This document shows positions 2 through 61,228 of a stretch of 64,000 nt of DNA, piece after piece; positions within the stretch are counted from its first letter, which is position 1; each line of letters begins with the position of its first letter. Source of the stretch: Crocinitomicaceae bacterium (GTDB taxonomy: Bacteria > Bacteroidota > Bacteroidia > Flavobacteriales_D > Crocinitomicaceae); the NCBI GenBank assembly GCA_965230585.1, contig CBDDLF010000007.1, forward strand, positions 68,188 through 132,187, written 5' to 3'. The translations under genes and the position numbers were made by a program. The notes below the pieces were generated by a model that saw nothing but the letters and a program-made list of their open reading frames with translations, was not told the DNA's origin and made no database searches.

Positions 2-2722
2 CCGGCGGCTCCCGGTGAGGAGATCGACTTCTCCGTCTTCGCCACCGACCCCGAGAGCGACTCCCTCGAATACAAGCTCACCTTCGGCGACGGCTCACCG
101 GCACGGGATTGGGCCGCGGCGTCCGTGGCTGCCCACACCTACACCGAGTCGGGGCACTACTCCGTCAAGGTGCAGGTGCGTGACATCAAACCCGACGGCA
201 GCCACTCCGTGGTCTCGCAGATCTTGACCGTCAGCGTGGTGGAGCCGGTGACCGGACCGTTGCCGTCCCATTCGTCGCAGCTGGCTTTGGACGACGTCCG
301 CCGGGTGGTGTGGACGGTGAATCCGGACAACGATTCCGTGGTCCGGGTCGACGCCGACACCCAGGCCCTCTTGCAAACCATCGACCTGCGATCCCTGCTC
401 AATACCAGCGAAACCGTCGATCCCGTGTCCGTCGACGTCGACGGGAGCGGCAACGCCTGGGTCGCCGCCCGCGACAGCGACGCGCTGCTCGTGCTTTCTC
501 CTGTCGGCGCGCTGCTGGCCGATCTCGACCTGGGCTGGGGATCCCAACCCCAAGCGGTGGTAGTCCACGGATCCGACGCCTACGTCACCACCCGGGGCCG
601 CGGCACGGGCTCCCCGTCCGACGGCCAATTGCTGCGCTTCGACACCGGCACCTTCAACCCCGACGGCGCCGTCGACCTTGGACCGTTTGCCGGAGCCATG
701 GCGATAACCGGCGACGGCAGCCGCGCCTATGTCGCTCGCTTCCTCTCCAAAGAGCACCACGGTGAAATTTGGGAGGTCGACACCGCGTCCATGACGTTGA
801 CCCGGACCATCGACCTGCTGCGGGATCGTGGTGAGCGCGGCCTGGACGCCGGCGGATCCGACGGTCCGGGCGTGCCCAATTACGTGTCGAGCCTGGTGCT
901 CAGCCCGCAGCAGGATTGGCTGTGGTTCACGGCGATCAAGGCCGACACCAACCGCGGTCTCTTCTTCCGTCAAGACACCGACCTCAACCTGCCCATGTCC
1001 CCGGACTCGACGGTGCGCTCGGTGCTCGGACGCATTGACTTGAGCAACCCCGACAACCCCTTCGAGCCAAATATCGGCGGCACGGGATCGTCGCGGGCGC
1101 GGGTCGATATCGACAACTCCGACTCCCCGTCGGCGATGGTCTTCTCCCCCGCCGGGGACTACGTTTTCGTCGCCCTCCAAGGCAACGACACCGTGGCCGT
1201 TTTCGACGACCTGGCGATCCGCGACGGCGGTGGACGCAGCTCCACCTGGCGATTCGACAGCTCCGGCGGCGCCCCCCAAGGCCTGTTGTTGGATCCTTCG
1301 AACGATCGATTGTGGATCAAAAGCTTCCTCGGACGCTCCCTGACCAGCCTGTCGTTGACGGATTTCTTCGCCAGCGGTGATCGCACGGTCAACGATTCCA
1401 CCCTCGCCACGGTGGCGGGCGAGCTGCTGCCCAGCGCCGTGCTGGCGGGCAAGACCCATTTCTACTTCGCGGGCAATGCGGTCGATGGTCAGAACGAGAT
1501 GAGCTTCGAGGGATATATCTCCTGCGCGAGCTGTCATCTCGACGGCGGTCACGACGGCCGGGTGTGGGATTTCACCCAGCGGGGTGAAGGTCTGCGCAAT
1601 ACCACCGCCCTCAACGGACGCGCCGGTATGGGTCACGGCAACGTGCATTGGACGGCGAATTTCGACGAGATCCAGGATTTCGTCAATGACATTCAATTCC
1701 AATTCGGTGGCAAGGGTTTCCTGCCCGACGGCGAGACCGCCAATCCACCCCTCGGTGCCGCCAACGCCGGTCGCAGCCAGGAGCTGGACGAGCTGGCCAC
1801 CTATTTGACCTCCTTGAGCGCCGAGCGATTCGGTCGCAGCCCCCACCGCACGGGCGGCGGCGGGCTGAATGTCGACGCCCAGCTCGGTGCCACGGTCTTC
1901 GAGAACCTGGGCTGCGACAGCTGCCACCTCCCACAAACCGAATTCACCGACAGCACCCTCGGCACCGCCACCCTGCACAACGTCGGCACCCTGCGCACCA
2001 GCTCCGGCCAACGCCTGGGTGAGCCGCTCACGGGCATCGACACACCGACCCTGCTCGGCGTTTTCGACGGCGCGCCTTACCTGCACGACGGCTCTGCGGC
2101 CACTCTGGAAGAGGTCTTCTCAGCCGTCGGCGGCACGGTCTACCAGCTCGAGCTGGGCACCTTCGCCGGCGACGCGGATCTGCCGGGATTCCCGTCGATC
2201 AACCAAGACAGCTCGTTCCACGGCAACATGGTGCAGCTGGGCGGTCCGGGTGCGTCGGTCACCCTCGACAACGTCGACGGCGGATCCGGCGGTCTCGGTC
2301 GGCTCGAGCTGCGCTATTGGCCCACAAATTCGGGCACCCTGCGACTGCGGGTGAACGGCGCGGTGATCGAGGATCGGGATTTCGACCGCGAAACCGTGCA
2401 TTTCCATTGGGAACGCATGGCCTTCGACAACGTGCCCCTGAACGCCGGAGCCGTCAACTCGGTGCAAATCGAGCTGACCACCACCACCTTCTCCGACATC
2501 GGCTTGGACGACCTCACCGTCGGCACCGCGGACGACGTCGCCCAAGCGTCACCCCATCGGGTCGCCCTCGGCCTCAGCCAGGCTGAGCGAGATCAGCTGA
2601 TCGCCTTCCTCAACAGTCTGGACCGGATCAGCGCTGGGGCTCCGCCGGTGGATTGGGGTGTGTTCGAGGATGGTTTCGAAAGCGGTGACGTCAACGCCTG
2701 GTCGTCGGTGGTCGGGAACTGA
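2..2722 (+). CDS. Secreted multidomain protein, 5' partial: PKD-like domain, beta-propeller region, di-haem cytochrome c peroxidase (CCP/MauG family) with CBM-like insert, DGFESGD..W tail
   Basis: The frame of ORF 125..2722 stays open back to nt 2. The N-terminal part reads PKD-like (HTYTESGHYSVKVQVRD). Two CXXCH motifs sit in CCP context (CASCHLDGGHDGRVWDF, CDSCHLPQTEFTD, TPTLLGVFDGAPYLHDGSAATLEEV). The protein ends VFEDGFESGDVNAWSSVVGN. Confidence 0.85.
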   Translation, partial: PAAPGEEIDFSVFATDPESDSLEYKLTFGDGSPARDWAAASVAAHTYTESGHYSVKVQVRDIKPDGSHSVVSQILTVSVVEPVTGPLPSHSSQLALDDVRRVVWTVNPDNDSVVRVDADTQALLQTIDLRSLLNTSETVDPVSVDVDGSGNAWVAARDSDALLVLSPVGALLADLDLGWGSQPQAVVVHGSDAYVTTRGRGTGSPSDGQLLRFDTGTFNPDGAVDLGPFAGAMAITGDGSRAYVARFLSKEHHGEIWEVDTASMTLTRTIDLLRDRGERGLDAGGSDGPGVPNYVSSLVLSPQQDWLWFTAIKADTNRGLFFRQDTDLNLPMSPDSTVRSVLGRIDLSNPDNPFEPNIGGTGSSRARVDIDNSDSPSAMVFSPAGDYVFVALQGNDTVAVFDDLAIRDGGGRSSTWRFDSSGGAPQGLLLDPSNDRLWIKSFLGRSLTSLSLTDFFASGDRTVNDSTLATVAGELLPSAVLAGKTHFYFAGNAVDGQNEMSFEGYISCASCHLDGGHDGRVWDFTQRGEGLRNTTALNGRAGMGHGNVHWTANFDEIQDFVNDIQFQFGGKGFLPDGETANPPLGAANAGRSQELDELATYLTSLSAERFGRSPHRTGGGGLNVDAQLGATVFENLGCDSCHLPQTEFTDSTLGTATLHNVGTLRTSSGQRLGEPLTGIDTPTLLGVFDGAPYLHDGSAATLEEVFSAVGGTVYQLELGTFAGDADLPGFPSINQDSSFHGNMVQLGGPGASVTLDNVDGGSGGLGRLELRYWPTNSGTLRLRVNGAVIEDRDFDRETVHFHWERMAFDNVPLNAGAVNSVQIELTTTTFSDIGLDDLTVGTADDVAQASPHRVALGLSQAERDQLIAFLNSLDRISAGAPPVDWGVFEDGFESGDVNAWSSVVGN

Positions 2723-8684: not shown

Positions 8685-11663
8685 ATGAAGACCCATGCGA
8701 CTCAATCCGAGGCCCCTCGGTTGAAGAAATTCCCCGAGCTCTGTGCTCGATGGCCCATCTTTCTTTTGGCTTTCGTCCTGATGCCCACCGCCGGGCCGGC
8801 GGAGATGCCGGCCGACGATCCGATGGATCGCTTCGGCCGTCCCGTAGTTTCAGACACCGGCGAGCCCTTGATTTACCAAGAACACGAATCGGAGCAGCTC
8901 GAAAAGAGCGTTGCTGCCGAAAAGAGGTCCTCACAAAGGCGAGCTGAAGCAGAATACATCTCAGCCATCCGCAAGAGCACCTTCCCCATCGAGCTGGAAT
9001 GGCATCGGACCATGTTCGGAGTCGGCATCGGCGCCACGGGTTTGCCGGTCGCCGACCTGGACGGCGACGGCAATCCCGAGGTCATCGCCGGAGCCGGTCC
9101 GCGAGCTTTTGCACAAAACGACTTCTGGTACGTGCTGAAATGGCAAGGCACTGCCTTTGAACAGGTTTGGTCGAGCGTCCAAATGCAAGACGATATCGAC
9201 GCCTTGAGGACCGCCGACCTGGACGGAGACGGCGACGACGAGGTGGTGATCGGCACGGAAGAGGGCGACCTGCTCGTTTTCGACGGCATCCAACCGGTTT
9301 TGCTACGCACCCTGTCGACCGCAGCCCAGGAAATCAACGATATGGACGTGCGGGATATCGACGGTGACGGCGTATTCGAAGCCACGTTGGTGGACGACGA
9401 CCATCTTTACGTCATCGATTTGGAAACCGGGGTCCAGGAGTATTTCGGCTCCGGATTGGGCGGATCCTCGGTCACCGTCGGAAATGTGGACGTTGATCCT
9501 TCCCCGGAGATCATCTCCACGGATCGCTACGACGGCGGCCGCGTCGTCGATCTCGCGAGCCAAACCGTCCAATGGGCACCGGCCGGCGGGTTCGGCTCCT
9601 ACGTAGAAACCTACGACATCGACCAGGACGGCATCGACGAGATCGTCGGCGGGGCTGCCTGGTACAGCATCTCCACCTATGACGCCGTCGGCCAGTCGAC
9701 GATCTACACGGTCTCGACCGCCCACAACATCGGCGGCCTGCGCCTGCTCGACTTCGACGACGACGGTCGGCTCGAGATCGTTTACGGCGATGCTCAGTGG
9801 GGCGGCATCCACAGCCTAGATGCGGCCACGGGAACACCAGAAGCCTACGTGGACAACGACCACCACGGCGTCACCCGGATCAACGTCGCCGACGTCGACG
9901 GGGACGGCACCCGCGAGCTGCTTTTCGGCACCGGATACAGCACCACGGGCTCCGACCATCTGGTGGTCCACGAGCTGCCGAGCCAGACCCTCCAGTGGAA
10001 GAGCCAAGACATCGCCGGTCCGTTCCGCGCCCTGGAATTCGGTGACGTGGACGCGGACGGCGACGTGGAGCTGATCTACGGCAGCACCGAGTCGGACAGC
10101 GGCTATAGCGACGGCCTTTACTTCATCCATGACGCCCAGAGCAAAGACCTCGAATACCTGAGCCCGGAGCCCACCGGCCTCGACTGGCTGGGCCTCCAGC
10201 GGATCCGCCACGCCGATATCGACGGCGATCCCCAGCACGAGCTCTTCGTCGTCACCAGCCGAACCTACACGCCGAAAATCCATTGCTACGACTCGGTGAC
10301 CCACGAGCTCCAGTGGGAGCTCTACGAAGACGATGCGGACCGAATCCACGGTCTCGACGTGGTCGACCTCGACGGCGACGGAGCCCTCGAGCTGGTGGCC
10401 TCGGGCGATCAGCTGTTGATCTACGACGCGGCCACCGGAGCCCGTGAGCACTTGGCGGCCGGCGGCGGCGGGCTCCAGCGCATCGGCGATGTGGATGGCG
10501 ACGGCGTGCTCGAAATCGTCACCGGCTCCCCGGGCGGGGCTCTGCGGATCTACGACGGTCTCACCTACGCCCTACAGCTGACCACCGTCGACTTGGATCT
10601 CTCGTCGGTGGATCTGGCGGACCGGGACGGCGACGGCGTCGACGACATCTTGATCGGTGACGAAGACGGCAACATCCGCTGGCTCAACGCCGCCACCGGC
10701 GCAACAGCGCAAAACGTCGGCAGCTTCGGGTCCGGCAACCACTTCGATCGTCCGATCGAGGGGCTGAACGCCTACGACCTGAATTTCGACGGCATCCTGG
10801 ACTATGTGTTCGCCCAAAACTTCGGCGTCAAAATCTACGACGGCCAAACTCTGGAAATGCTTTGGTTCAGCGGCGCTTTGTTCAAAGTCACGGGCCTAGC
10901 GATCCATCCCGGAGACCGAGACAGCCTGGTGGTCGACGACGTGGACGGCGATGGCAACATCGAGATCTGGATCAACCTCGGCCACGAAGCCATGCGCATG
11001 TGGGAAGTGCCCGGCCCGGGACCGAGCTGCTTTGCGGACGACTTTGAGGACGGCACGATCGACAGCGGTTGGACTTTCGGCTTCCTCGGCAATGCCGACC
11101 AAGGGGGTGCGGTGGAGGTCGGCGGCGCTCTGCAAGTGAGCGGCGACGGCACCACCCTCTACGCCGGCGACGACCATGGCTTCTTCCTCTATCGCGACGA
11201 TCGCTCGGGCGACTTCCGCATGGAGACAGACGTCACCGGATTCCCGGTGGATCAAGGTGGCCCATACCGAAAAGCCGGCCTCATGGCCCGCGCAGACATG
11301 TCGATCGACGCGCCGCGGGCGATGATCCAATACGCGCCCAACTTCGGCAACACCGGTCGGCCCGTGCTGCAATTCCGCTATCGGCTGAGCCAAGGAGGTC
11401 CCGGGGACGGTGCCTTGGGTAGCAATATCTACGACGTGCCCCTGCCCGTGCGCTTGGCCCTCGAGCGCGTGGGCGACACCTACAGCGTTTACTTCTCCAC
11501 CAACGGCGGAACCACTTGGAGTCAGCCGAGAGGCGGTAGCCAAGGCTCGATCGATATCCCGGCCATGGGCTCCGCACCCCTGGTGGGTTTAAACGTGGTG
11601 TCGTATTCGGCTCACACCGCCCTCACCGCGGAGATGGACAACTTCCTAGTTTGCAGCCCCTGA
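8685..11663 (+). CDS. Secreted FG-GAP/VCBS-repeat protein with C-terminal ConA/LamG-like domain
   Basis: It has a signal-like N-terminus and many D.DGDG..E repeat cores. The C-terminal domain starts CFADDFEDGTIDSGWTF. Confidence 0.85.
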   Translation: MKTHATQSEAPRLKKFPELCARWPIFLLAFVLMPTAGPAEMPADDPMDRFGRPVVSDTGEPLIYQEHESEQLEKSVAAEKRSSQRRAEAEYISAIRKSTFPIELEWHRTMFGVGIGATGLPVADLDGDGNPEVIAGAGPRAFAQNDFWYVLKWQGTAFEQVWSSVQMQDDIDALRTADLDGDGDDEVVIGTEEGDLLVFDGIQPVLLRTLSTAAQEINDMDVRDIDGDGVFEATLVDDDHLYVIDLETGVQEYFGSGLGGSSVTVGNVDVDPSPEIISTDRYDGGRVVDLASQTVQWAPAGGFGSYVETYDIDQDGIDEIVGGAAWYSISTYDAVGQSTIYTVSTAHNIGGLRLLDFDDDGRLEIVYGDAQWGGIHSLDAATGTPEAYVDNDHHGVTRINVADVDGDGTRELLFGTGYSTTGSDHLVVHELPSQTLQWKSQDIAGPFRALEFGDVDADGDVELIYGSTESDSGYSDGLYFIHDAQSKDLEYLSPEPTGLDWLGLQRIRHADIDGDPQHELFVVTSRTYTPKIHCYDSVTHELQWELYEDDADRIHGLDVVDLDGDGALELVASGDQLLIYDAATGAREHLAAGGGGLQRIGDVDGDGVLEIVTGSPGGALRIYDGLTYALQLTTVDLDLSSVDLADRDGDGVDDILIGDEDGNIRWLNAATGATAQNVGSFGSGNHFDRPIEGLNAYDLNFDGILDYVFAQNFGVKIYDGQTLEMLWFSGALFKVTGLAIHPGDRDSLVVDDVDGDGNIEIWINLGHEAMRMWEVPGPGPSCFADDFEDGTIDSGWTFGFLGNADQGGAVEVGGALQVSGDGTTLYAGDDHGFFLYRDDRSGDFRMETDVTGFPVDQGGPYRKAGLMARADMSIDAPRAMIQYAPNFGNTGRPVLQFRYRLSQGGPGDGALGSNIYDVPLPVRLALERVGDTYSVYFSTNGGTTWSQPRGGSQGSIDIPAMGSAPLVGLNVVSYSAHTALTAEMDNFLVCSP

Positions 11664-23149: not shown

Positions 23150-24901
23150 ATGTTGACGAGCTTCTCACGTTCCAAAAACAGCATGCGAGCGGCAGCGGCG
23201 GCAATCACGTTGCTCGCGTCGCTGCTCGGTACCAGCTCCATCCCGGCCGGCACCGCGCCGATCACCCATCCGATTGTTTTCGTGCAATACCCGAGCCCGG
23301 AGAATCTCCAGGCGCCGATCCGGGGCAATCTCTTGCGCTTGGATCCGGACGGCAGCGTCCACGCCTTGACCGATCGGACCGACGCTGCGGTGAGGGATCC
23401 AGAAGTCTCTTGGGACGGTACCCAGGTGGTCTTTTCCATGCGCATCGGTGCCGACACCGCGACTTGGCAAGTTTGGGAGGTGGGTGTCGATGGGACCGGG
23501 CTGCGGAAAGTCAGCCAAGACCCGGCCTACAACGATCTCGACCCCAGCTACCTGCCCGACGGCCGCTTGATCTTCACCACCGATCGCCTGCGCTGGTCCG
23601 ACGGTTATGAAAATGTGCCGGCCACTCAGCTCGCGGTCATGGGCTCCGACGGCCTCAACGTGGAGATGCTGAAGGTCAACCCGTCGGGACACTCGAACCC
23701 TCTCGTCGGCAGCGACGGCATGGTCTACCTCACCCAATGGGATTTCCACGACCGTCGGACCACCATGTCCGACGAGGAAGACGAGACTTTCGACGTCAAC
23801 CGATTCCTCTTGTGGAAGGTCTTCGCCGACGGCAGCGGTCTCGACCATCCAGCCTTCGGCGCCCACACTATCGGCGACTTCACCCCGGGTTATGTGGAAA
23901 TTCGAGAACGACCGTCCGCGCCGGGTACCTTCGTCGGCGTGCTGGGTTCGGAAGATACCCAGGAGGTCACCAGCTTCTCCCCGGATCGACTGATTTTCGT
24001 GCCAGGTACTTTCCTGACCTTCTTCGGTGCCGACATTGTGTTGATGCAACCGCAGGCGAACCAAGATCTCGACCAGCCCGTCTCCTTGACCTCCGGCGAT
24101 GAGATGGAGGGCACTTGGCGCTCACCCTTACCCCTTGAGGACGGTCGGATCGTCGCGACATTTTTTCCGGAAGAATTCGAAGGGGAGGAGCCACCGGCCC
24201 AGCTGTGGATGATGAACAGCGACGGATCCAACAAGACCCTTCTGCACCATCAGGACAGCCATTGGTTGATCCAACCGGTGGAGGTCGTGGCTCGGACGCC
24301 CCCGACGCTGCTGGACGGCCAGATGCGGCCGGAGTATCCCTATGCCTTGATCAACGCCCTCGACGTCACCCTGCGCAGCAATGACGGTCAGAGCCATCCG
24401 GCTCCCGGCGAGGTGGTCGCGGTGCGCGTGCTACGGGAGGATGTGCGCACGCCGAACGACCACGACGCCCAGCTGGACAGCGGTGGCTCCAACGTGTTCC
24501 AAGCTTGGGACGACCCCGATACCGTGGAGCTGGGCACCGCCCCCGTGGCACCGGACGGCTCGTTTGCGGTGGTCGTTCCCGCCGATACTCCCATCACTTG
24601 GGAGCTGTTGAGCTCCCAAGGAAACGTGGTGGTGCGAGAGCGCTTCGGCACCGAGCTGCGTGCCGGTGAGGTCCGCACCTGCGCAGGTTGCCATGCGCCC
24701 CACGACGGCACCCAAGGCTCCACCTCGAATATGGCGTTGGCGTCGCCCACCAACTTGAGCGGGCAGGAAGTGGATTTAGACAATAACGGCGTTGTCGATT
24801 TGCTGGAAAATCTATGCGAGGTCATCCCCTCCGCCTGCGGCACAGGGGTGATTTTCAATGACGGCTTCGAATCGGGAAATACCTCCGCCTGGAACGGTTA
24901 G
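23150..24901 (+). CDS. Secreted TolB/PD40-like beta-propeller protein with one CXXCH motif and a DGFESGN..W tail
   Basis: An AGGAGG RBS precedes the start and a signal peptide is present. The propeller part reads DPEVSWDGTQVVFSMR...YLPDGRLIFTTDR. The haem motif is CAGCHAPHDG. The protein ends VIFNDGFESGNTSAWNG. Confidence 0.8.
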   Translation: MLTSFSRSKNSMRAAAAAITLLASLLGTSSIPAGTAPITHPIVFVQYPSPENLQAPIRGNLLRLDPDGSVHALTDRTDAAVRDPEVSWDGTQVVFSMRIGADTATWQVWEVGVDGTGLRKVSQDPAYNDLDPSYLPDGRLIFTTDRLRWSDGYENVPATQLAVMGSDGLNVEMLKVNPSGHSNPLVGSDGMVYLTQWDFHDRRTTMSDEEDETFDVNRFLLWKVFADGSGLDHPAFGAHTIGDFTPGYVEIRERPSAPGTFVGVLGSEDTQEVTSFSPDRLIFVPGTFLTFFGADIVLMQPQANQDLDQPVSLTSGDEMEGTWRSPLPLEDGRIVATFFPEEFEGEEPPAQLWMMNSDGSNKTLLHHQDSHWLIQPVEVVARTPPTLLDGQMRPEYPYALINALDVTLRSNDGQSHPAPGEVVAVRVLREDVRTPNDHDAQLDSGGSNVFQAWDDPDTVELGTAPVAPDGSFAVVVPADTPITWELLSSQGNVVVRERFGTELRAGEVRTCAGCHAPHDGTQGSTSNMALASPTNLSGQEVDLDNNGVVDLLENLCEVIPSACGTGVIFNDGFESGNTSAWNG

Positions 24902-24922: not shown

Positions 24923-24953
24923 GCCTTTCAGCGGCTCAGAGCCGCTGAAAGGC
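24923..24953 (+). terminator. Perfect 13-bp hairpin after the stop codon (no U-tract)
   Basis: gcctttcagcggc, loop tcaga, gccgctgaaaggc. Confidence 0.55.
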
Positions 24954-24955
24954 TG

Positions 24956-25027
24956 CTCGGAAACTACGTGGCACCTTCCTCGGAAACTACATGGCACCTT
25001 CCTCGGAAACTACGTGGCACCTTCCTG
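24956..25027 (+). repeat. REP-like array, three abutting 23-nt units
   Basis: ctcggaaactacgtggcaccttc occurs three times (24956, 24979, 25002). The middle unit has one G to A change. Confidence 0.95.
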
Positions 25028-38615: not shown

Positions 38616-38849
38616 AAACCAGGAGGGCGAGGCCGACGTTGCAAGGAGGATCCGGCGCACCAGAAGCTTCGAAGCCGTGCGATCTCGCAGCCATCGAGAA
38701 GCTTGGCAGAAAAACCGACAGCATCGCGACCGATTGCCGGAAAAAGGATCGAAGAAGAAAAAAGTGAATAGAAGTCGTCATGTGCTCGTAACATGATGAG
38801 CTGCCCTTCTTGGGTTCCTATTCACAATTCAACTCTGGAGAATCTGTAT

Positions 38850-41800
38850 ATGATTCGAGCGCTTTGCCATGTTTTATTTTTTTGTCCCATGTTCCTTTCC
38901 TTCCTTCTCGCAGAATCAGCCGCGGCCCAGCCCCAAGAGCCTCTCCGCGCGATATTTCTGAACATCGAGGCCCCCAACTCTTCACCCCAGCTGGCCGTGC
39001 ATTGGACCGGCGACCCCAACGCTCGACTATCCGTTTGGCTCGATCTCGACGGCGATGGCCGTGGGCAGGACTCCGAGCTAGTGATTCGAGACGTGTTGTT
39101 GCGGGACGAAATGAAGGTTTTTGAGCTCGAAGCTTCATTCGGAACCCCCGCATTGGAGCCACATTCCCAGGCCCTATTTCGAGTGACTTTGCACGACGAG
39201 GTCGTGAACGAATTTCTACAGCTGATTCGCGAGCCGGCTCCCTCCGTCGGCCCCGGTACGGGACCAGAACACTGTGAATGGTCGCCAGACTTCTACCAGC
39301 GCGATTTGGACGGCGCAGTGGAAAGCAGTGCTATTTTCGACGACGGTACCGGCCCAGCCCTCTTTGTGGGCGGCTCGTTTGGATCCGTCAATGCCACCAA
39401 GATCTCAAATATTGCTAAATGGGACGGCACTAGCTGGCATCCACTGGGCTCCGGCACGAACGGTACGGTCTACGCTCTCACGGTCTACGACGACGGCAGC
39501 GGTCCCGCACTCTATGCCGCGGGATCTTTCACCGAGGCCGGAGGCGTCAGCGCGAATCGCATCGCACGCTGGGACGGCACCGCTTGGCATCCCCTCGGAC
39601 AAGGTGTGGGCACCTTCAGGATTCATAAACTGACCGTCTATGACGACGGTAGCGGTCCCGCACTCTACGCGGGTGGCTATTTCTCCGAAGCGGGAGGGGC
39701 CGAGGCCCACAACATTGCTAAGTGGGACGGCGCGGCTTGGTCGGCGGTCGGCTCGGGAGTGAACGACCAAGTCCATGATCTACACGTTTTTGACGACGGC
39801 AACGGATCCGCCCTCTATGTGGGTGGCCGATTCTTTGCAGCGGGAGCGACCGGCGCCCAACATCTCGCAAAATGGGACGGATCGGCTTGGTCGGCGGTCG
39901 GCTCGGGCAGCGACCAACCCATTCGAGCCCTCCACACTTTCGATGACGGCAGCGGGCCGGCTCTCTACATCGGAGGAGAATTCACCACCGTCGACGGCGT
40001 GGCCGCCAGTCGGATCGCCAAATGGGACGGCACACAGTGGTCGTCCCTAGACGTTGGGGCAAACGGCTGGGTCTACGATCTGGCCGTCTACGACGACGGC
40101 GGCGGCTCGGCTCTTTACGCCGTAGGCAGCTTCCCGAACGCGGGCGGAATTTCCGCCGGGCGGGTCGCCAAGTGGGACGGCACACAGTGGCATTCGCTGA
40201 ATTCGCAGATTGAAAACACGGTCTACCACCTAAATGTCTTCGATGACGGCAGCGGATCAAAGCTCTATGTCGGAGGCCTTTTCACGATTCCCGGCGAGGC
40301 CAACCACATCGCGACGTGGGACGGCTCTGCTTGGAGCGCGCTCAGCAGCAGCCCCCCCACGGGCTTGGGGCTAAGCTCTGTCGTTGAAGATTTCGCGTTT
40401 TTCGACGACGGCAACGGACCCGCGCTCTATGCCGCGGGACACTTCCGCACCGCCGGCGGTGTCGCTGCCCAGCGCTTGGCAAAGTGGGACGGAACGAGCT
40501 GGCATGCACTGGGATCCGGCATAGACAATGCTGTCCTCGCTTTGGCGGTTTTCGACGACGGCAGCGGCCCCGCACTCTATGCCGGCGGCTTTTTCTTCGA
40601 GGCAGGTGGGGTACCCGCCAAGAGCATCGCCAAATGGGACGGCAGCGCGTGGTCACCCCTCGGCTCGGCACTCCAGGGCTTGATTTCGGACCTAGTGGTG
40701 TTCGACGACGGTGGCGGACCCGCACTCTACGCCAGCGGCCACTCTCTCTTCCTCAATGGCTCGGTCGCCGGGCCCATCGTCAAATGGGACGGTAGCTCGT
40801 GGTCAACTCTGGACGCGAGCCTGGGCTTCGGTGTCGGCACGGGAGTGAGCTCCTTGGCAGTGTTTGACGACGGCAACGGCCCTGACCTCTATGCTGCCGG
40901 CAACTTCACAACGATAGATGGAGTCCAAGCCGCCAACGTCGCCAAGTGGAACGGAACGAGCTGGTCCAGCTTGGGCGGTGGAACGAACAATCGGATCCGT
41001 CGTCTGGCAACCCTCGACGACGGCAACGGTCCTGCACTCTACGTGGGCGGCGACTTCACCTCTGTCGATGGCATCGATGCCCATCGAATCGCAAAATGGA
41101 ACGGCACCGACTGGTCTGCGATGGGCGCAGGTTTCGATAATTACGTCTTCGCCTTGGGTAGCTTCGACGACGGATCCGGTCCTGCCATTTATGCCGGAGG
41201 CTTCTTTCGATCTTCAGGTGCCACGCCGGTGAATCGACTCGCCCGATGGGACGGGTCTCAATGGCAGCCTATGGGCGCGGGCGTCAACGGGCCCATCGAC
41301 GCCATGATGCCCTACGACGACGGCCGTAGATCCTCTTTCTATATCGGCGGCAGCTTCACTGCTGCGGACGGATTGCCTTCCATGAGAGTCGCCAAATACA
41401 CGTGCTTTTCACCACCGAGCCTCAGCCTGCCCGCGCTCACTCACACCGCAGTCTCATCGTGGGTGGAGATTCCCATCGAGCTCCAAACCGGCGGTCGATC
41501 CCTGGATTCCGCCACATTCTCCATCGACTACGATGAAACTTGCCTCAACCCTGATCTCAACGGCGACGGCGTTCCGGACCACATCGAGCTCCAGCTTCCT
41601 GAGCTTCTTGAGGTCGACATCGCCTTCGACCCCCTCGACACCGACGGAGAGCTGGATCTGACCGTGAGCCTTCTCGAAGGTGCGGGCGAAGGCTTTCCCA
41701 ACCGCGGCGCAGACGACGGCTTGCCCGACGGTGCTCTGCTGACCATCGGATTCCAGGCCACCTGCTCGGCGGCTCCCGGCTCGTCCACCGACGCCGCCGT

Positions 41801-42623
41801 GGATTTCTCCCTCGACCCCGAGGTGGGTTTTGGAACGAGCCTGGGACAGAACATCTCCGGCAACGTCACCAACGGCGTGGTCCGGATTTGGTCGGGAGAC
41901 CCGGGGGATTGCAATGCCGACGGCATGGTCGATTCCGGCGATCTCGAAGCCACGGCGCTCGAAATTTTCGACGCCGACGGCGAAGCTTGGCTCGACGCCC
42001 CGGGCGGTACCTTCTCCGGAAGCCCCGTGGGCTGCGATGCCAATGCCGACCTTCAGATCCGAGCGGCGGACCTCGTCTGTGCGAATCTGCTGAGCACCGA
42101 AACCGCGTGCGATTCCAGCGGCGATCTCCAGAGCCAAAACGAGCTTGAGATCTCGACCCGTTGGCGGGAGGGCGTGTCGTGGATTCGTCTTGAGGTGACG
42201 TCGGAGCAGCTCGAGCCGAATAATCCCATCGGCGGTTTTGCCCTTTCCCTCGACTTCGACCCGGCCCTTTTCGATCTCGGCTCGGTCGACGCGGACGCCG
42301 ACGGCGTGCCGGACCTCCTGCGTTTTCCCCAGGGTCAGCCTGGATCGGTCATCGTGCTCTGGAGTGATAGCGACACCGACGGCGAGCTCGACCTCGCCAT
42401 CGCCGATCTCGACCAGCTGCCCCTTCCCGAAGGGATCGTCGTAGAAGTCGGCGTGCCCGCCAATCATCTTTTCGAAGGTGGGATCACCGCCTCCCAAGAT
42501 CCAGCCCCATCGTTCGCCTCACCGCACGGCGCGGATTTGACCTCCAGCGTCCAGATCCGATCGGGCATCTTCGTCGACGGTTTCGAATCCGGCGACACCT
42601 CCCAGTGGATCGGCTCTGACTAA
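38850..42623 (+). CDS. Giant secreted protein: about 14 tandem propeller-blade repeats of about 57 aa, cohesin/dockerin-like region, DGFESGDTSQW tail
   Basis: The preferred ATG at 38850 follows GGAGAA and gives the signal peptide MIRALCHVLFFCPMFLSFLLAESAAA. The repeat reads IAKWDG.(A/S)W..LG.G....V.AL.VFDDGSGPALY.GG.F..AGG. The protein ends GIFVDGFESGDTSQWIGSD. Confidence 0.85.
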   Translation: MIRALCHVLFFCPMFLSFLLAESAAAQPQEPLRAIFLNIEAPNSSPQLAVHWTGDPNARLSVWLDLDGDGRGQDSELVIRDVLLRDEMKVFELEASFGTPALEPHSQALFRVTLHDEVVNEFLQLIREPAPSVGPGTGPEHCEWSPDFYQRDLDGAVESSAIFDDGTGPALFVGGSFGSVNATKISNIAKWDGTSWHPLGSGTNGTVYALTVYDDGSGPALYAAGSFTEAGGVSANRIARWDGTAWHPLGQGVGTFRIHKLTVYDDGSGPALYAGGYFSEAGGAEAHNIAKWDGAAWSAVGSGVNDQVHDLHVFDDGNGSALYVGGRFFAAGATGAQHLAKWDGSAWSAVGSGSDQPIRALHTFDDGSGPALYIGGEFTTVDGVAASRIAKWDGTQWSSLDVGANGWVYDLAVYDDGGGSALYAVGSFPNAGGISAGRVAKWDGTQWHSLNSQIENTVYHLNVFDDGSGSKLYVGGLFTIPGEANHIATWDGSAWSALSSSPPTGLGLSSVVEDFAFFDDGNGPALYAAGHFRTAGGVAAQRLAKWDGTSWHALGSGIDNAVLALAVFDDGSGPALYAGGFFFEAGGVPAKSIAKWDGSAWSPLGSALQGLISDLVVFDDGGGPALYASGHSLFLNGSVAGPIVKWDGSSWSTLDASLGFGVGTGVSSLAVFDDGNGPDLYAAGNFTTIDGVQAANVAKWNGTSWSSLGGGTNNRIRRLATLDDGNGPALYVGGDFTSVDGIDAHRIAKWNGTDWSAMGAGFDNYVFALGSFDDGSGPAIYAGGFFRSSGATPVNRLARWDGSQWQPMGAGVNGPIDAMMPYDDGRRSSFYIGGSFTAADGLPSMRVAKYTCFSPPSLSLPALTHTAVSSWVEIPIELQTGGRSLDSATFSIDYDETCLNPDLNGDGVPDHIELQLPELLEVDIAFDPLDTDGELDLTVSLLEGAGEGFPNRGADDGLPDGALLTIGFQATCSAAPGSSTDAAVDFSLDPEVGFGTSLGQNISGNVTNGVVRIWSGDPGDCNADGMVDSGDLEATALEIFDADGEAWLDAPGGTFSGSPVGCDANADLQIRAADLVCANLLSTETACDSSGDLQSQNELEISTRWREGVSWIRLEVTSEQLEPNNPIGGFALSLDFDPALFDLGSVDADADGVPDLLRFPQGQPGSVIVLWSDSDTDGELDLAIADLDQLPLPEGIVVEVGVPANHLFEGGITASQDPAPSFASPHGADLTSSVQIRSGIFVDGFESGDTSQWIGSD

Positions 42624-42675
42624 GCTGTCCTGTTGATCCGAAACTGGGCCTGGGCCCTAGCCCACTAGATCAACA

Positions 42676-42709
42676 GCAGACGCCGGTCGAATTTCCGACC
42701 GGCGTCTGC
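42676..42709 (+). terminator. Strong hairpin after the stop codon (14-bp stem, no clear U-tract)
   Basis: gcagacgccggtcg, loop aatttc, cgaccggcgtctgc. Confidence 0.55.
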
Positions 42710-42720
42710 CGTGTTCTGAG

Positions 42721-42950
42721 GTCTCAGAAACCCGTCCGGAAACAACCAGGCACCTGCCTGGGGGCTGAAACTTGCTGCCCGAGGAAACCGTGCCCACGGA
42801 AACTACGTGGCACCTGCCTGAAGGCCGTCCGGAAAGGCCGTCCGGAAAGGCCGTCCGGAAATCACGGGACACCTGTTTCGAAGCCGTCCGGAAACTACAT
42901 GGCACCTCCCTGGAGGCTTCCCGGAAACTTCGCCAGACCTTCGGCTGCCG
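42721..42950 (+). repeat. Long degenerate REP-like array
   Basis: Two good cores are present: ggaaactacgtggcacctgcc at about 42798 and ggaaactacatggcacctccc at about 42889. Several decayed ones are also present (ggaaacaaccaggcacctgcc, ggaaatcacgggacacctg), along with ccgtccggaaagg repeats. Confidence 0.8.
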
Positions 42951-43122: not shown

Positions 43123-43139
43123 CTGGCATGCCCATTGCT
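43123..43139 (+). promoter_or_regulatory. Sigma-54 promoter candidate (CTGGCAT-GCCCA-TTGCT)
   Basis: TGGCAT is at 43124..43129 and TTGCT at 43135..43139. The GG-N10-GC spacing is exact. The site is 80 nt upstream of the ATG at 43219. Confidence 0.6.
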
Positions 43140-43218
43140 CTTTCCGAGGGTACGTCACAGCCCGCGTCAGGGTTTACGACCTTCGTTTTACTTTCCACTT
43201 TCTGAAAGGGACAAACGC

Positions 43219-47160: not shown

Positions 47161-47242
47161 AGATGGACCAAGCAAACATCGTCGACGATTTCGAACATGG
47201 AATCTCAGAGAACGTGAGTAGAAAGCTCTATGAGCTCATATT

Positions 47243-47791
47243 TTCTCCGAAGCCGGAGGCGCAACGGCCAACAACATCGCCAAATGGGACGGCTCCCAAT
47301 GGTCTCCTCTCGGCACGGGGCTGGGCGACCAAGCTTATGCTTTGTACGCCTACGACGATGGCTCCGGCTCCGCCCTCTATGTCGGCGGCAATTTCACCAC
47401 CGCTGGGCCGACCAAGGCAGAACATCTCGCCAAGTGGGACGGGTCGGCTTGGGCGATGGTTGGCTCAGGCACCAACCGACCCGTTCGAGCCTTCAATAGT
47501 TTCGATGACGGCACAGGATCAGCTCTTTACATTGGAGGAGAATTCACCGCCGTTGACGGGGTCGCCGCCAATCGCATCGCCAAATGGAATGGGGGGGAGG
47601 GGATCGCCATAGAAATCGGCGGGCCCGCCAATCATCTTTTCGAAGGTGGGCTCACTGTCTCCCAAGATCCGGCCCCGTCGTTCGCCTCGCTGGACGGCGC
47701 GGATCTGGCATCCAGCGTCCAGATCCGCTCCGGCATCTTCGTCGACGGTTTCGAATCCGGCGACACCTCCCAGTGGACCGGCTCTGAATAA
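47243..47791 (+). pseudogene. Truncated paralog of the propeller-repeat gene (about 3 blades fused to the last 60 aa and tail)
   Basis: It reads FSEAGGATANNIAKWDGSQW...IAKWNGGEGIAIEIGGPANHLFEGGLTVSQDP...GIFVDGFESGDTSQWTGSE. It has no ATG and no signal peptide. The fusion point lies at a G-run near 47590. The tail segment is highly similar to 42435..42623. Confidence 0.7.
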
Positions 47792-57757: not shown

Positions 57758-60700
57758 GTGAATCGCCCTCTTCTGTCCCTCATTGCAATCGCCCTGTTGA
57801 CGCCACCAGTCTTTGGTGACGTGCTTCCTTGCACCGGCGGCGCCTGGTCGGCATTGCCCGGCAGCGACATGCTCACGGCCTCGCCGACTGAATTCGTCAG
57901 CTTCGACGACGGCAGCGGTCCGGCCATCTTTGCGGCCGGTGCTTTCGGTGATCCCAAACCCGTCGCGAAATGGGACGGGACTGCTTGGTCGCTCATGGGG
58001 CCGACCTCACACGGCCAATCGGTGGCCGTCTTCAACGACGGCAGCGGAGCGGCCCTCTACGCCGGAACTTGGGAAGCGGGAATCCAAAAGTGGGACGGCG
58101 CGGTGTGGTCGGCCGTGCCCGGCACCTTCAGCGGAAGCGGTCCCACGGCGATGGCCGTCTTCGACGACGGCAACGGCTCAGCCCTCTACGTCGGCGGTAG
58201 GTTCGCCACCATCGACGGCCTGACGGTGAACGGCATCGCCAAATGGGACGGCTCGGCTTGGTCGGCCCTTTCCGGACCCATGGGCACCGGTCTCACGGAC
58301 CCTTCGTTCGTGATTGTCGAAGGGATGACGGTCTTCGATGACGGCAGCGGTCCGGCGCTCTACGTGGGTGGACGATTCACCACCGCCGGTGGCGTGGTGG
58401 CCGGCAACCTCGCCAAGTGGGACGGCTCGGCTTGGTCGGCGCCCGCGGGTCTCAATGATCTGGTGTTCGCGCTCGAAGTCTTCGACGACGGCAGCGGCCC
58501 CGCTCTCCACGCCGCCGGCAGATTCCTCGTCGACGGCAGCCGCGTGGCCAAATGGGACGGAGCGACTTGGTCGGGCCTAGGCTCGACATCCGGTGACGAT
58601 ATCAACGACCTGATCGTCTTCAACGACGGTCGAGGCGCAGCGCTCTATGCGGCCGGCTCGATCGGCACGGTGAGCGGGGCTCTGGTCAACAACGTCGCTC
58701 GGTGGGACGGTGAGGATTGGTCAGCCCTCTATGGGCCGTCCGAAATCGGCACGGACGATCGGGTCTTTGCGTTGGGCGTCTTTGACGACGGCGGAGGCCC
58801 GGCCCTCGTCGCCGGCGGCTCTTTCACCACCGCGGGTGGCACGGCAGCGCCGTTCGCGGCGAGATATTCCTGCGCCTTCGGCACCGCGGCAGACCATTGC
58901 AACACGGAGAACGGCACTTGGGGACCGGTTTTTGCCGGGCCGGGACCGAGCTACGACCTCAAGGCGTTGGCCACCTTCGACAGCGGCTCCGGTCCGCAGA
59001 TCTACGGCGGCGGCGAGTTTTCCTCGATCGACGGCGTGGCGCGAAACGGGCTCGGCCGGTGGACCGGAGCGGAGTGGGAATCCGTCAACGGCGGGGTTCA
59101 GGACAGCTACGGGGATCCCGGCGAGGTCCGGGAGCTCATCGTCTTTGACGACGGCGGGGGTCAGACACTCTTTGCCGGTGGCTACTTTGAAATCGCCGGT
59201 GGTGTTCCGGCGATCAACATCGCGAAATACGACGGCATGACGTGGTCCGCCTTGGGGAGTCCCGATCTGGACGACGGCGTGGAGGTCATGGCGATCTTCG
59301 ACGACGGCGGAGGCCCAGCCCTCTACGTCGGCGGCTATTTCACCACCGCCGGCGGGGTGACCGTGAACGGCATTGCCAAATGGGACGGCGCGGCTTGGTC
59401 GGCCCTGACCGATGCGGGCGGATCGGGGGTCACCACCAGCCTCGGGACCGGCAACGTCTACGCCATGACGGTCTTTGACGATGGGAGCGGACCGGCCCTC
59501 TATGTCGGAGGATCCTTCACCACCGCCGGTGGCGTCACTGCTCACGACGTCGCGAAGTGGGACGGCACGGCTTGGTCGGCTTTGGCCGGCGGGACCGGCA
59601 GCATTCCGGACAGCGTTCTCGCGTTGACCGTCTTTGACGACGGCGGCGGTCCTGCGCTCTATGCCGGTGGTGATCTCTCGACTCTCGGCGGGGTGAGCGT
59701 GAGCAACATCGCGAAATGGGACGGCACCGCTTGGTCGAAGCTGGACGGCCCGGCGGGAGACGGCACCGATGATCAAGTGTATAGCCTGTCGGTTTTCGAC
59801 GACGGCGGAGGGCCGGCGCTCTACGCCTCCGGTAGCTTTTCCACGGCGGGCGGTGTGACGACGGGTCGGGTGGCCAAGTGGAACGGCACCGCTTGGTCAG
59901 GGGTGTCGGGTCCCAACGAAGCTTGGGTCACGGTGCTGGCGACCCTGGACGACGGCGGCGGTCTCGCCCTCTATGCCGGTGGAACCTTCGACACGGCCGG
60001 CAGCGTCGTCACCGGCGGCTTGGCCAAATACGACGGCTCGGCGTGGTCGGCTTTGGCAGCACCGGCGTCCGGCGTCAACCAAGCCGTCTCGGCATTGACC
60101 GCATTCGACGACGGCAGTGGCTCGGCCCTTTACGCCGGTGGCTCCTTCACTACCGCCGGCAACATCCTCGCTAATCGCGTGGCGCGCTGGGATGGTGCCG
60201 CGTGGAGCGCCCTCTCGGGTCCTTCGGACAACGGCATGGACGATGCCGTGCTCGCTTTGGTGAGCTTCGACGACGGTGGCGGCCCGGCCCTCTATGCCGG
60301 CGGCTCCTTCACGAGCGCGGGGGGAATCGCCGCAAATCACATCGCGAAATGGGACGGCACAGTGTGGTCTGCCCTGGCGGGGCCCTCTGGCACCGGCACC
60401 GACGGCACGGTATCCGCCCTCGCAGTTTTCGATGACGGCGGCGGCCCAGCGCTCTACGTCGGTGGATCCTTCACCGCGGCTGGAGGCATCGCCGCAAACC
60501 ACATCGCGAAATGGGACGGCACGACGTGGTCAGCTCTCTCCGGCCCCGGTGGCAACGGACTGGACGGCACCGTTCACGCCCTCGCCGCCTTCGACGGAGA
60601 GCTCTACGTCGGCGGCTCTTTCACGACCGCAGGGGGTGAAACCGTGAATCACGTCGCCAAGTGGGACGGCACGGCGTGGTCCGCCTTATTTTGCCCCACG

Positions 60701-61228
60701 GGGATCGGCACCAACGGCTCGGTGCTCGCCCTGACCGTCCACGATGGCACCCTTCATGTGGGAGGCAGTTTCGACACAGTGGCCGCTGCGCCTGCGAATC
60801 GCATCGCGAGATGGAACGGAAGCGAGTGGTTGACCATGGGCGGTCCTTCGGGAACCGGCATGGACTCCGATGTCGAAGCGCTGGCCGGCTTTGAGTCCGG
60901 AACCTCGGCGATGCTCGTCGCCGGCGGCAGCTTCGACACCGCGGGCGGAATGACGACCCGCTCTATCGCCAATTGGCGGGGAGCCTGGCAACCCGTCTTC
61001 GGCCCCACCGCGGTCGGCGTCTACGGCTCCGTAGCAGCGCTCGCGTATTTCGACGACGGCCTCGGTCCGGTCGGCAGCGACCCCGCGCTCTACGTAGGCG
61101 GGTGGTTCGAAACGGCCGGTGGAATGGCGTCGCAATTCCTTGCGCGATATTCCTGTTACGGCGGTGACCTCTTCCGGGACGGTTTCGAAACCGGTGATAC
61201 GTCACGCTGGGCTTGGACGGCCCCTTAA
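57758..61228 (+). CDS. Giant secreted propeller-repeat protein (about 21 blades), paralog of 38850..42623, DGFETGDTSRW tail
   Basis: GTG start with the signal peptide MNRPLLSLIAIALLTPPVFG. The same (I/V)AKWDG.AWSAL...VFDDGSGPALY.GG.F..AGG repeat is present. Repeat blocks close with ARYSC. The protein ends LFRDGFETGDTSRWAWTAP. Confidence 0.85.
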   Translation: MNRPLLSLIAIALLTPPVFGDVLPCTGGAWSALPGSDMLTASPTEFVSFDDGSGPAIFAAGAFGDPKPVAKWDGTAWSLMGPTSHGQSVAVFNDGSGAALYAGTWEAGIQKWDGAVWSAVPGTFSGSGPTAMAVFDDGNGSALYVGGRFATIDGLTVNGIAKWDGSAWSALSGPMGTGLTDPSFVIVEGMTVFDDGSGPALYVGGRFTTAGGVVAGNLAKWDGSAWSAPAGLNDLVFALEVFDDGSGPALHAAGRFLVDGSRVAKWDGATWSGLGSTSGDDINDLIVFNDGRGAALYAAGSIGTVSGALVNNVARWDGEDWSALYGPSEIGTDDRVFALGVFDDGGGPALVAGGSFTTAGGTAAPFAARYSCAFGTAADHCNTENGTWGPVFAGPGPSYDLKALATFDSGSGPQIYGGGEFSSIDGVARNGLGRWTGAEWESVNGGVQDSYGDPGEVRELIVFDDGGGQTLFAGGYFEIAGGVPAINIAKYDGMTWSALGSPDLDDGVEVMAIFDDGGGPALYVGGYFTTAGGVTVNGIAKWDGAAWSALTDAGGSGVTTSLGTGNVYAMTVFDDGSGPALYVGGSFTTAGGVTAHDVAKWDGTAWSALAGGTGSIPDSVLALTVFDDGGGPALYAGGDLSTLGGVSVSNIAKWDGTAWSKLDGPAGDGTDDQVYSLSVFDDGGGPALYASGSFSTAGGVTTGRVAKWNGTAWSGVSGPNEAWVTVLATLDDGGGLALYAGGTFDTAGSVVTGGLAKYDGSAWSALAAPASGVNQAVSALTAFDDGSGSALYAGGSFTTAGNILANRVARWDGAAWSALSGPSDNGMDDAVLALVSFDDGGGPALYAGGSFTSAGGIAANHIAKWDGTVWSALAGPSGTGTDGTVSALAVFDDGGGPALYVGGSFTAAGGIAANHIAKWDGTTWSALSGPGGNGLDGTVHALAAFDGELYVGGSFTTAGGETVNHVAKWDGTAWSALFCPTGIGTNGSVLALTVHDGTLHVGGSFDTVAAAPANRIARWNGSEWLTMGGPSGTGMDSDVEALAGFESGTSAMLVAGGSFDTAGGMTTRSIANWRGAWQPVFGPTAVGVYGSVAALAYFDDGLGPVGSDPALYVGGWFETAGGMASQFLARYSCYGGDLFRDGFETGDTSRWAWTAP

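Follow-up and report, generated by a model that had tools for sequence, protein, structure and literature searches.

Sorting tags such as PEP-CTERM, LPXTG, GlyGly-CTERM and MYXO-CTERM are short, lineage-restricted signatures at the extreme C-terminus of unrelated signal-peptide proteins, and they include a transmembrane helix and a basic cluster. Other systems rely on larger modules. The C-terminal domain of the type IX secretion system (T9SS) is a folded sandwich of ~70-100 residues, and dockerins are Ca-binding, duplicated EF-hand-like modules of ~60-70 residues. In donor-strand systems, such as chaperone-usher pili and the type V pili of Bacteroidota, a terminal peptide that mimics a sandwich strand can fill the groove of another subunit. 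Here, we describe a tail of ~20 residues with the core motif F.DGFE(S/T)G(D/N)...W, found at the C-terminus of exported proteins in a 64-kb stretch of DNA (64,000 nucleotides of contig CBDDLF010000007.1, labelled Crocinitomicaceae bacterium; hereafter the window) and in public sequence collections. The tail is attached through a short linker and is modular, being present on unrelated Sec-exported proteins. It represents a class that is new to Pfam, NCBIfam and the literature searched.

A six-frame regular-expression search of the window returned five matches to the motif, all on the forward strand, with the initial F at positions 2663, 24854, 42570, 47738 and 61172 and with 6, 2, 4, 4 and 5 residues, respectively, between the W and the stop codon. 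The back-translated DNA pattern recovered the same five sites, and 100 dinucleotide-preserving shuffles of the window yielded 0.00 matches, against the five observed. These results agree with an earlier note on this DNA, which had reported the motif at five open reading frame (ORF) ends and whose peptide strings match the translations. The possibility, raised in the same note, that the tail is a longer domain cut by an assembly error was also checked, and beyond all five stops the DNA encodes no continuation of a domain in any frame. The matches reflect neither chance nor truncation. The synonymous codons of the motif differ between the CCP protein, the HzsA-like propeller protein and the blade-repeat protein that starts at 57758 (Table 1), and identical motif codons were found only between the gene that starts at 38793 and its fragment. 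This codon comparison bears out the view that the motif is conserved at the protein level in three unrelated carriers.

The pattern DGFE[ST]G[DN]xxxW was then searched for in public collections; based on an information-content estimate, ~17 chance matches to it are expected in 596 Gb. In IMG/VR, 66 loci presented the pattern and the positions of the motif were bimodal. In one form, the motif opens a protein or domain of 200-400 residues, often with the N-terminal sequence M-A-I-F-S-DGFESGDFSAWTG. In the other form, which was found in 17 cases, the motif is followed by 1-6 residues and a stop. The species-genome matches listed amount to 134, two of which have a stop inside the motif and represent chance matches; a stop was found at most 10 residues away in 98 of the 132 in-frame matches. 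We then considered the viral and genome loci as a single pool of 116 tails, which, like the counts by phylum given below, is drawn from the matches listed. Exactly five residues follow the W in 70/116 pooled tails and Pro is the last residue in 76/116. Overall, the tails stop 0-8 residues after the W, which is itself the last residue in 1/116.

The consensus of the tail is [ILV]-F-[AS]-D-G-F-E-[ST]-G-[DN]-T-S-A-W-S-x-[TV]-V-P-COOH. Several positions that were free in the search pattern are nonetheless conserved: F at -2 (108/116), I/L/V at -3 and T-S-A before the W. Relative to the domain-opening form, tails present T instead of F after GD (position 7), S instead of T after the W (position 11) and the V-P end. 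The tail possesses its own residue signature, distinct from that of the domain-opening form. Looser variants of the motif (DDFETGD, NGFESGD and DNFENGS) were found at C-termini in the same loci, and the strict pattern therefore undercounts the family. Finally, a search of 1.84 billion cluster representatives with a profile of the tail yielded 6,803 proteins (E <= 0.001), a number that includes both tail and domain-opening forms. Among the best 150 of these 6,803 matches, the motif lies at most 10 residues from the C-terminus in 54 of the 56 single-motif proteins, an excess that is favored because the profile was built from tails.

The two forms differ in their phylogenetic distribution. Loci labelled as Acidobacteriota present 87 tails and 11 longer forms, whereas those of other phyla present 0 tails and 21 longer forms (Fisher's exact p = 1e-15). 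Tails are confined to Acidobacteriota among the phylum-labelled loci listed, and they belong mostly to Thermoanaerobaculia (including Ca. Multivoradales) and Holophagae. The longer form was found in Chloroflexota, Actinomycetota, archaea, Paenibacillus, Fimbriimonas, Verrucomicrobiota and Patescibacteria. Eleven more tails come from metagenome-assembled genomes (MAGs) labelled just 'bacterium' or 'Deltaproteobacteria'. Judged by protein similarity, the window is itself acidobacterial in affinity: its proteins are 59-72% identical, over the aligned segments, to proteins of Thermoanaerobaculia and Acidobacteriota MAGs.

The carriers of the tail are diverse. Within the last 400 residues of 87 carriers, we matched 53 Pfam families, including S8 and M14 peptidases, MAM, FG-GAP, beta-helix, BNR, GH8, GH114, GSDH and PAD, with a MAM-type jelly roll in 10/87. 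Using a crude rule, a signal-peptide-like N-terminus was identified in 58/73 complete carriers relative to 197/1214 other ORFs of the same loci. Cysteine is enriched just upstream of the tail. The tail has a net charge of -2.8 and three conserved aromatic residues, and 1.0 is the median of the Kyte-Doolittle means calculated for the most hydrophobic 12-residue stretch within the last 30 residues. Hydropathy and charge are both consistent with the earlier description of a tail that lacks both a transmembrane helix and a basic cluster. In 15/87 carriers, the last 400 residues contain a choice-of-anchor J, Q or B domain, and this domain ends just before the tail in all three carriers that were checked individually. 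Choice-of-anchor A was named since its surface proteins are anchored by LPXTG, PEP-CTERM or T9SS signals (bioRxiv 10.1101/2023.03.06.531300). By analogy, the shared name suggests that this meaning may extend to choice-of-anchor J, Q and B and that the tail may occupy the slot of an anchor signal.

The unit is not always single or terminal. Tandem double tails, ~21 residues apart, were found in several families (P0290, P0296, P0308, P0341 and P0343), and one protein (P0307) presents a complete ConA-like domain with its own first strand and, beyond a Pro-rich linker, an additional tail. The unit was also found internally or right after signal peptides. In two Acidobacteriota loci (L118 and L174) and in P0138, it directly follows a signal-peptide-like N-terminus and precedes a different domain (Cys-rich in L118); the tail unit is therefore not strictly C-terminal. 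Two tiny ORFs (P0136 and P0312) encode a signal peptide, one or two tail units and nothing else, and they are taken with caution because many short matches are fragments of frameshifted assemblies. We also observed small proteins of one family that are encoded by IMG/VR contigs with a viral classification (L010, L011, L018, L030, L040, L043 and L062; also P0327). These proteins are composed of a signal peptide, a ~70-residue domain (…GHP…EWW…C) and the C-terminal tail, with a Pro/Thr-rich linker (TPTPTRTPT…) in several of them. The viral origin of this family is unconfirmed because a search of L040 against PHROGs gave no phage match for the six neighboring ORFs; the tail protein itself matched two families of unknown function only.

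The longer form indicates where the motif may come from. Ten long-form segments match Polysacc_lyase (PF14099), CBM_4_9 (PF02018), Laminin_G_3 (PF13385) and related families, and position 1 of the PF14099 profile and the start of CBM_4_9 both align at the motif. Homologs of a 225-residue long-form protein likewise have precomputed matches to PF13385 and PF14099. An AlphaFold2 model of this 225-residue protein, based on 91 sequences and with a predicted local distance difference test (pLDDT) score of 88, is a beta-sandwich in which A-I-F-S forms a strand (residues 2-5) and DGFESGDFSAW a loop (residues 6-17). A Foldseek search of this model against the PDB returned ConA-like lectin folds with a probability of 1.0, including TtX122, botulinum Hcn, CBM66 and legume lectins. 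Long-form proteins are thus predicted to be ConA/LamG-like jelly rolls in which the motif is the N-terminal strand and loop, and the motif opens such a jelly roll in phage-like contigs, Chloroflexota, Actinomycetota and archaea. The tails share only this opening segment and not the complete jelly roll (~170-250 residues). Indeed, I-F-S-DGFESGD-x-S-A-W is common to both, whereas ~180 residues of the fold are absent from the tail and tail-specific residues are present. Based on these alignments and models, the sequence of the tail is a copy of the strand and loop with which a ConA/LamG-like jelly roll begins. The idea that the tails are orphan first strands holds in that they correspond to the opening segment of the fold, but only the four residues before DGFE (A-I-F-S) form a strand. 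Within the window, an internal motif (DDFEDGTIDSGW, at 11037) was also confirmed in an FG-GAP protein, but the ConA-like domain that it was said to open is represented only by a weak match of the C-terminal region to DUF1349 (E = 0.007). In hhalign, only the 18-residue motif of this region was aligned, and a PDB sequence search with the C-terminal domain gave no match.

The HzsA-like family, which includes the window protein that starts at 23150, reveals that the tail is optional among orthologs. Orthologs at 52-68% identity keep the tail, those at 41-50% identity stop straight after the sequence DxDxNGxxDLLE, without the tail, and two orthologs carry a different C-terminal segment in its place. 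We considered that another sorting tag might replace the tail in this family and rejected this candidate, the alternatives being none or the different segment. The ortholog with 68% identity is encoded by a chromosome of 12.18 Mb (OZ375331.1), and one ortholog is labelled Holophagales; for the window protein itself, exact look-ups returned no record. DxDxNGxxDLLE is a conserved dockerin-/EF-hand-like end motif (24785-24850 in the window; orthologs P0002-P0027), and a Cys-x6-8-Cys pair follows it in the closest tail-bearing orthologs (P0001-P0007 and P0010). In the window protein, the order is the dockerin-like DLDNNGVVDLLE, the Cys pair and the tail. We modeled this protein with AlphaFold2 based on 44 sequences. 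The model has a predicted TM-score of 0.84 and a body with pLDDT >90 over most of its length, and the tail (residues 565-583) has pLDDT <50, presents no secondary structure and is not packed on the body. This suggests that the tail is probably undocked in cis and more likely acts in trans.

Our leading interpretation, held tentatively and at slightly less than even confidence, is that the tail serves exported proteins as a portable tag for recognition in trans, likeliest by being captured as an added strand or hairpin. Acidobacteriota of the Thermoanaerobaculia/Holophagae type append the acidic ~20-residue tail by a short linker to many unrelated Sec-exported proteins. According to this model, the tail would remain flexible and exposed after Sec export, and a common partner would recognize it in trans, most likely by capturing it as an added beta-strand or hairpin. 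This partner might be a lectin-fold acceptor or an envelope component, and the enzyme would consequently be retained or routed at the cell surface. We ranked strand or hairpin capture first because the tail mimics a fold-opening segment, because tandem, internal and N-terminal placements are tolerated and because the usual Pro end suits a tag that persists outside the cell: a C-terminal Pro resists most carboxypeptidases. Several observations weigh against this interpretation. No partner, acceptor or processing gene was found among the flanking genes. The low pLDDT of the modeled tail may be partly explained by its presence in just 13/43 other aligned sequences. The simple picture of an orphan first strand is weakened because DGFESGD..W is a loop in the long-form model. 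Four of the five window tails are without the family-typical V-P end, and the tail at 61166..61228 is the only one that presents the typical five residues after the W ending in Pro. The species-genome scan, which comprises at least 119 loci, is a sample of taxon breadth rather than a census. Finally, a candidate case of tag swapping within the M36 peptidase group (NF038111-3) was rejected: the carriers are S8 or M28 peptidases that matched the M36 models only through a shared MAM/choice-of-anchor J domain, and tag swapping in one ortholog group is therefore unsupported.

Alternatively, it is possible, if on the unlikely side, that the tail is a sorting or secretion signal. An envelope machine would read the free C-terminus (…W-S-x-x-V-P-COOH), move the protein across or onto the outer membrane and possibly remove the tag, following a logic similar to that of the T9SS C-terminal domain or PEP-CTERM without a membrane anchor. 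The fixed distance to the carboxylate among the 116 pooled tails would fit such a signal, as would the signal peptides of the carriers, the location of the tail where choice-of-anchor proteins bear sorting signals and the restriction to one lineage, which is usual for sorting systems. However, units in tandem, internal or following a signal peptide are unusual for a signal that is read from the terminus, the window tails end 2-6 residues after the W and mostly without V-P, and the tail has no transmembrane helix or basic cluster by which the protein could be kept at the inner membrane while it is processed. Moreover, no candidate sorting machine was found near the carriers, including among the window genes. 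Split-domain docking is somewhat less likely again in our view. Here, the tail would donate the opening strand and loop of a ConA-like fold to acceptors that are without this segment, which may serve to display the secreted hydrolases, propeller proteins and adhesins of Thermoanaerobaculia/Holophagae. The ORFs composed of a signal peptide and tail units would then act as caps or competitors. No acceptor domain without its own first strand was seen in ~1 Mb of flanking DNA.

We consider it distinctly unlikely that the tail is an autonomous acidic-aromatic hairpin that binds Ca2+, exopolysaccharide or the sugars of lipopolysaccharide and tethers enzymes without a protein receptor. Its negative charge and three aromatic residues, its derivation from carbohydrate-binding or lectin folds, the many hydrolases among its carriers and its tandem duplication, which suggests avidity, would all be compatible with this function. 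Nevertheless, 20 residues are very few to build a stable binding site, the tail by itself is left unstructured by AlphaFold2, and nothing places a strand and loop from the start of the sandwich at a ligand site. Packing in cis, with the tail as an extra edge strand on its own protein (a propeller 'velcro' or the completion of a jelly roll), appears very improbable. Three of the four window carriers have beta-propellers and a minority of carriers have a MAM-type jelly roll, but the 53 upstream families are unrelated, ~400 non-propeller residues separate the blade repeats from the tail in the protein that starts at 38793, and orthologs fold without the tail. The undocked tail on a confidently modeled body and the extra tail of P0307, whose ConA-like domain is already complete, also speak against cis packing. 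We give the least credit, and very little of it, to the tails being non-functional remains of lost ConA-like domains or the product of errors in assembly or gene calling. Some profile matches are indeed genes cut by contig ends or long-read frameshifts, and one window copy is a fragment that is probably a pseudogene. This explanation is contradicted by the statistics of position and conservation: more than 100 independent genes in dozens of genomes stop at most 10 residues after the W, most often 5, the residue preferences of the tail are unseen in the domain form, the tail is conserved across orthologs with different codons, and no domain remnant is found downstream.

Clustering of the ORFs that flank the tail genes identified Ser/Thr kinases with extracytoplasmic function (ECF) sigma factors as the sole recurrent families, in 14 of ~100 loci. 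This recurrence probably represents background because, in a rough check, the density was about the same as in the two longer loci available for comparison, the window and L186. Two annotated neighborhoods that we inspected presented nothing recurrent. The window encodes a protein of 1373 residues that combines two Ser/Thr kinase domains with TPR repeats (48246-52367), and homologs of this kinase, often adjacent to an ECF-type sigma factor, lie at most 8 kb from tail genes in L091, L100, L150, L165, L172 and others. In L091, the frames of the kinase and of an ECF-type sigma factor ORF overlap by 4 nucleotides (stop-to-stop coordinates).

The features of the window are listed in Table 1. Domain matches in Pfam and NCBIfam upheld the carrier identities that had been proposed (a CCP haem protein, a PD40 propeller and blade-repeat giants). 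All four full-length carriers had been described as Sec-signal proteins, and inspection of the translations revealed signal-peptide-like N-termini in carriers 2-4. The signal peptide of carrier 1 is uncheckable because its ORF runs past the 5' edge of the window, with 888 stop-free codons from the edge to the motif. An ortholog of carrier 1 in Thermoanaerobaculia (L151) is likewise tail-terminated. The C-terminal region of carrier 3 presents a sub-threshold cohesin match and a dockerin-like stretch, GDCNADGMVDSGD, seen by eye. The earlier note had also recognized a truncated paralog. It is indeed a paralog of carrier 3 with a tail, but it consists of two joined pieces, with 75% nucleotide identity to 39680-40025 and 86% to 42429-42650. 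Because its open 5' end has neither a start codon nor a signal peptide, this fragment is probably a deletion pseudogene, although its tail codons are intact. Its similarity to the carrier 3 gene reaches 47818, such that 27 nucleotides of the 3' flank fall within the 86%-identity piece.

Table 1. Tail carriers, tails and related features of the 64-kb window (positions in the window; all on the forward strand).
Feature	Coordinates	Strand	Sequence	Description
Carrier 1	2..2722	+		CCP_MauG and beta-propeller matches; ORF open at the window 5' edge
Tail of carrier 1	2660..2722	+	VFEDGFESGDVNAWSSVVGN + stop	End of the di-haem CCP/MauG-like and propeller protein
FG-GAP protein	8685..11663			ORF with an internal motif
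C-terminal region of the FG-GAP protein	11031..11663	+	FADDFEDGTIDSGW	Last 210 residues, opened by the internal motif; long-form context with a possible ConA-like domain
Carrier 2	23150..24901	+		Signal peptide, TolB-like propeller, HZS_alpha middle domain (HzsA-related)
Tail of carrier 2	24848..24901	+	VIFNDGFESGNTSAWNG + stop	End of the 23150 protein
Carrier 3	38793..42623	+		Signal peptide, ~15 Rax2/DUF5122-type blade repeats, C-terminal region, tail
Tail of carrier 3	42564..42623	+	GIFVDGFESGDTSQWIGSD + stop	End of the 38793 protein
Carrier 3 paralog fragment	47242..47791	+		Two blade repeats, followed immediately by the final 70 codons and tail
Tail of the fragment		+	GIFVDGFESGDTSQWTGSE	End of the fragment
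Carrier 4	57758..61228	+		Signal peptide and Rax2/DUF5122 blade repeats
Tail of carrier 4	61166..61228	+	DLFRDGFETGDTSRWAWTAP + stop	End of the 57758 protein

A 23-nucleotide repeat, CGGAAACTACGTGGCACCTnCCT, was observed just 3' of two tail genes (24923-25026 and 42673-42927), with three head-to-tail copies after the carrier 2 gene and three to four spaced copies after the carrier 3 gene. Both sets have a perfect or near-perfect hairpin in front of them (24923-24953 and 42673-42712). The repeat was not found in shuffled sequence and is absent from 187 other loci that were compared. The ORF between the carrier 3 gene and its fragment (43135-47100; 1321 residues) has no significant match in Pfam or NCBIfam. 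It opens with four repeats of ~95 residues (…PFP.Y.VGD.A…SPAQAN.PVYR.RYK.G.PDG…), and its other ~800 residues match no family. On the reverse strand, an ORF at 4032-4874 matches the domain of Imm51, a polymorphic-toxin immunity protein (E = 4e-8). The remaining gene content of the window consists of ordinary acidobacterial genes, among them a TonB-dependent receptor, a MacB/FtsX permease, a PQQ propeller, an M1 peptidase, a histidine kinase with a sigma-54 regulator, a peptidylprolyl isomerase and a sulfatase.

Acidobacteriota are abundant in soils, sediments and sponges but poorly tractable, and how they export and place their peptidases and glycosidases is largely unknown. The tag, which is shared by thousands of protein clusters, constitutes a sequence handle for predicting the surface or secreted proteome of these lineages, and it points to a partner or pathway. 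If strand complementation is true, the tail would also represent a natural small docking tag of biotechnological interest. The database names of the carriers are 'hypothetical protein', with one 'uncharacterized repeat protein (TIGR01451 family)', and a new Pfam/NCBIfam model would be justified because the carriers are now labelled as hypothetical.

We searched full carriers and isolated tails against Pfam and NCBIfam at E <= 10 and no model was found to cover the tail. None of six tail segments was matched by the PEP-CTERM models (PF07589/TIGR02595) at E <= 10, and a long-form protein of Fimbriimonas, which did match PF07589, served as the positive control. No motif, helix or model match was found for LPXTG, GlyGly-CTERM or MYXO-CTERM. 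Models of the T9SS C-terminal domain matched neither the tail segments nor the C-termini of the window carriers, and the sole match to TIGR04183 covers internal residues 517-552 of 1230 in one carrier from outside the window. The tail is thus unlike PEP-CTERM, LPXTG, GlyGly-CTERM and T9SS signals, as had been stated. It does not correspond to an outer-membrane beta-signal, since most tails end in Pro and the carriers are soluble-type enzymes and propellers, nor to a type I secretion/RTX signal, since most complete carriers have signal-peptide-like N-termini and no RTX family was found in the 25 most frequent of the 53 Pfam families. The tails had no dockerin match, and their ~20-residue unit presents a pattern that differs from the two Ca-binding repeats of ~22 residues (DxNxDGxxxxxD) of a dockerin. 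The tail profile yielded only a chance WD40 match against PDB sequences, and tblastn of the tail consensus against plasmids gave no match. Finally, a word-indexed protein search with the tail profile returned 39 short fragments (29-74 residues) that have no taxonomy, and nothing relevant was found in a full-text literature search based on motif strings and acidobacterial sorting signals.

The tail shares with PEP-CTERM, LPXTG, GlyGly-CTERM and MYXO-CTERM a short signature restricted to a lineage and located at the extreme C-terminus of unrelated signal-peptide proteins, and the domains that precede it are of the same kinds (choice-of-anchor J, Q and B). In contrast to these sorting tags, it has neither a transmembrane helix nor a basic cluster, can be tandem, internal or N-terminal and has no known sortase-like partner. 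The T9SS C-terminal domain is comparable in that it is a signal of beta type without a membrane segment, located at the C-terminus of hydrolases and adhesins that a diderm lineage exports by Sec, but it is a folded domain several times longer than the tail, which is ~20 residues long and modeled as unstructured. To our knowledge, T9SS is not known in Acidobacteriota. As in the dockerin-cohesin system, the tail is small, acidic, usually C-terminal, sometimes duplicated and present on many different secreted enzymes, which it would dock on a common scaffold, but it does not possess the calcium-binding repeat of dockerins and has no known cohesin-like receptor. The tail resembles the donor peptides of donor-strand systems in that it mimics part of a beta-sandwich, namely the strand and loop that open the ConA-like fold, although its carriers are enzymes and not pilins. 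Split-domain docking would therefore resemble cohesin-dockerin pairs in function and pilus donor-strand exchange in mechanism, and docking by fold complementation, if true, would be categorically new.

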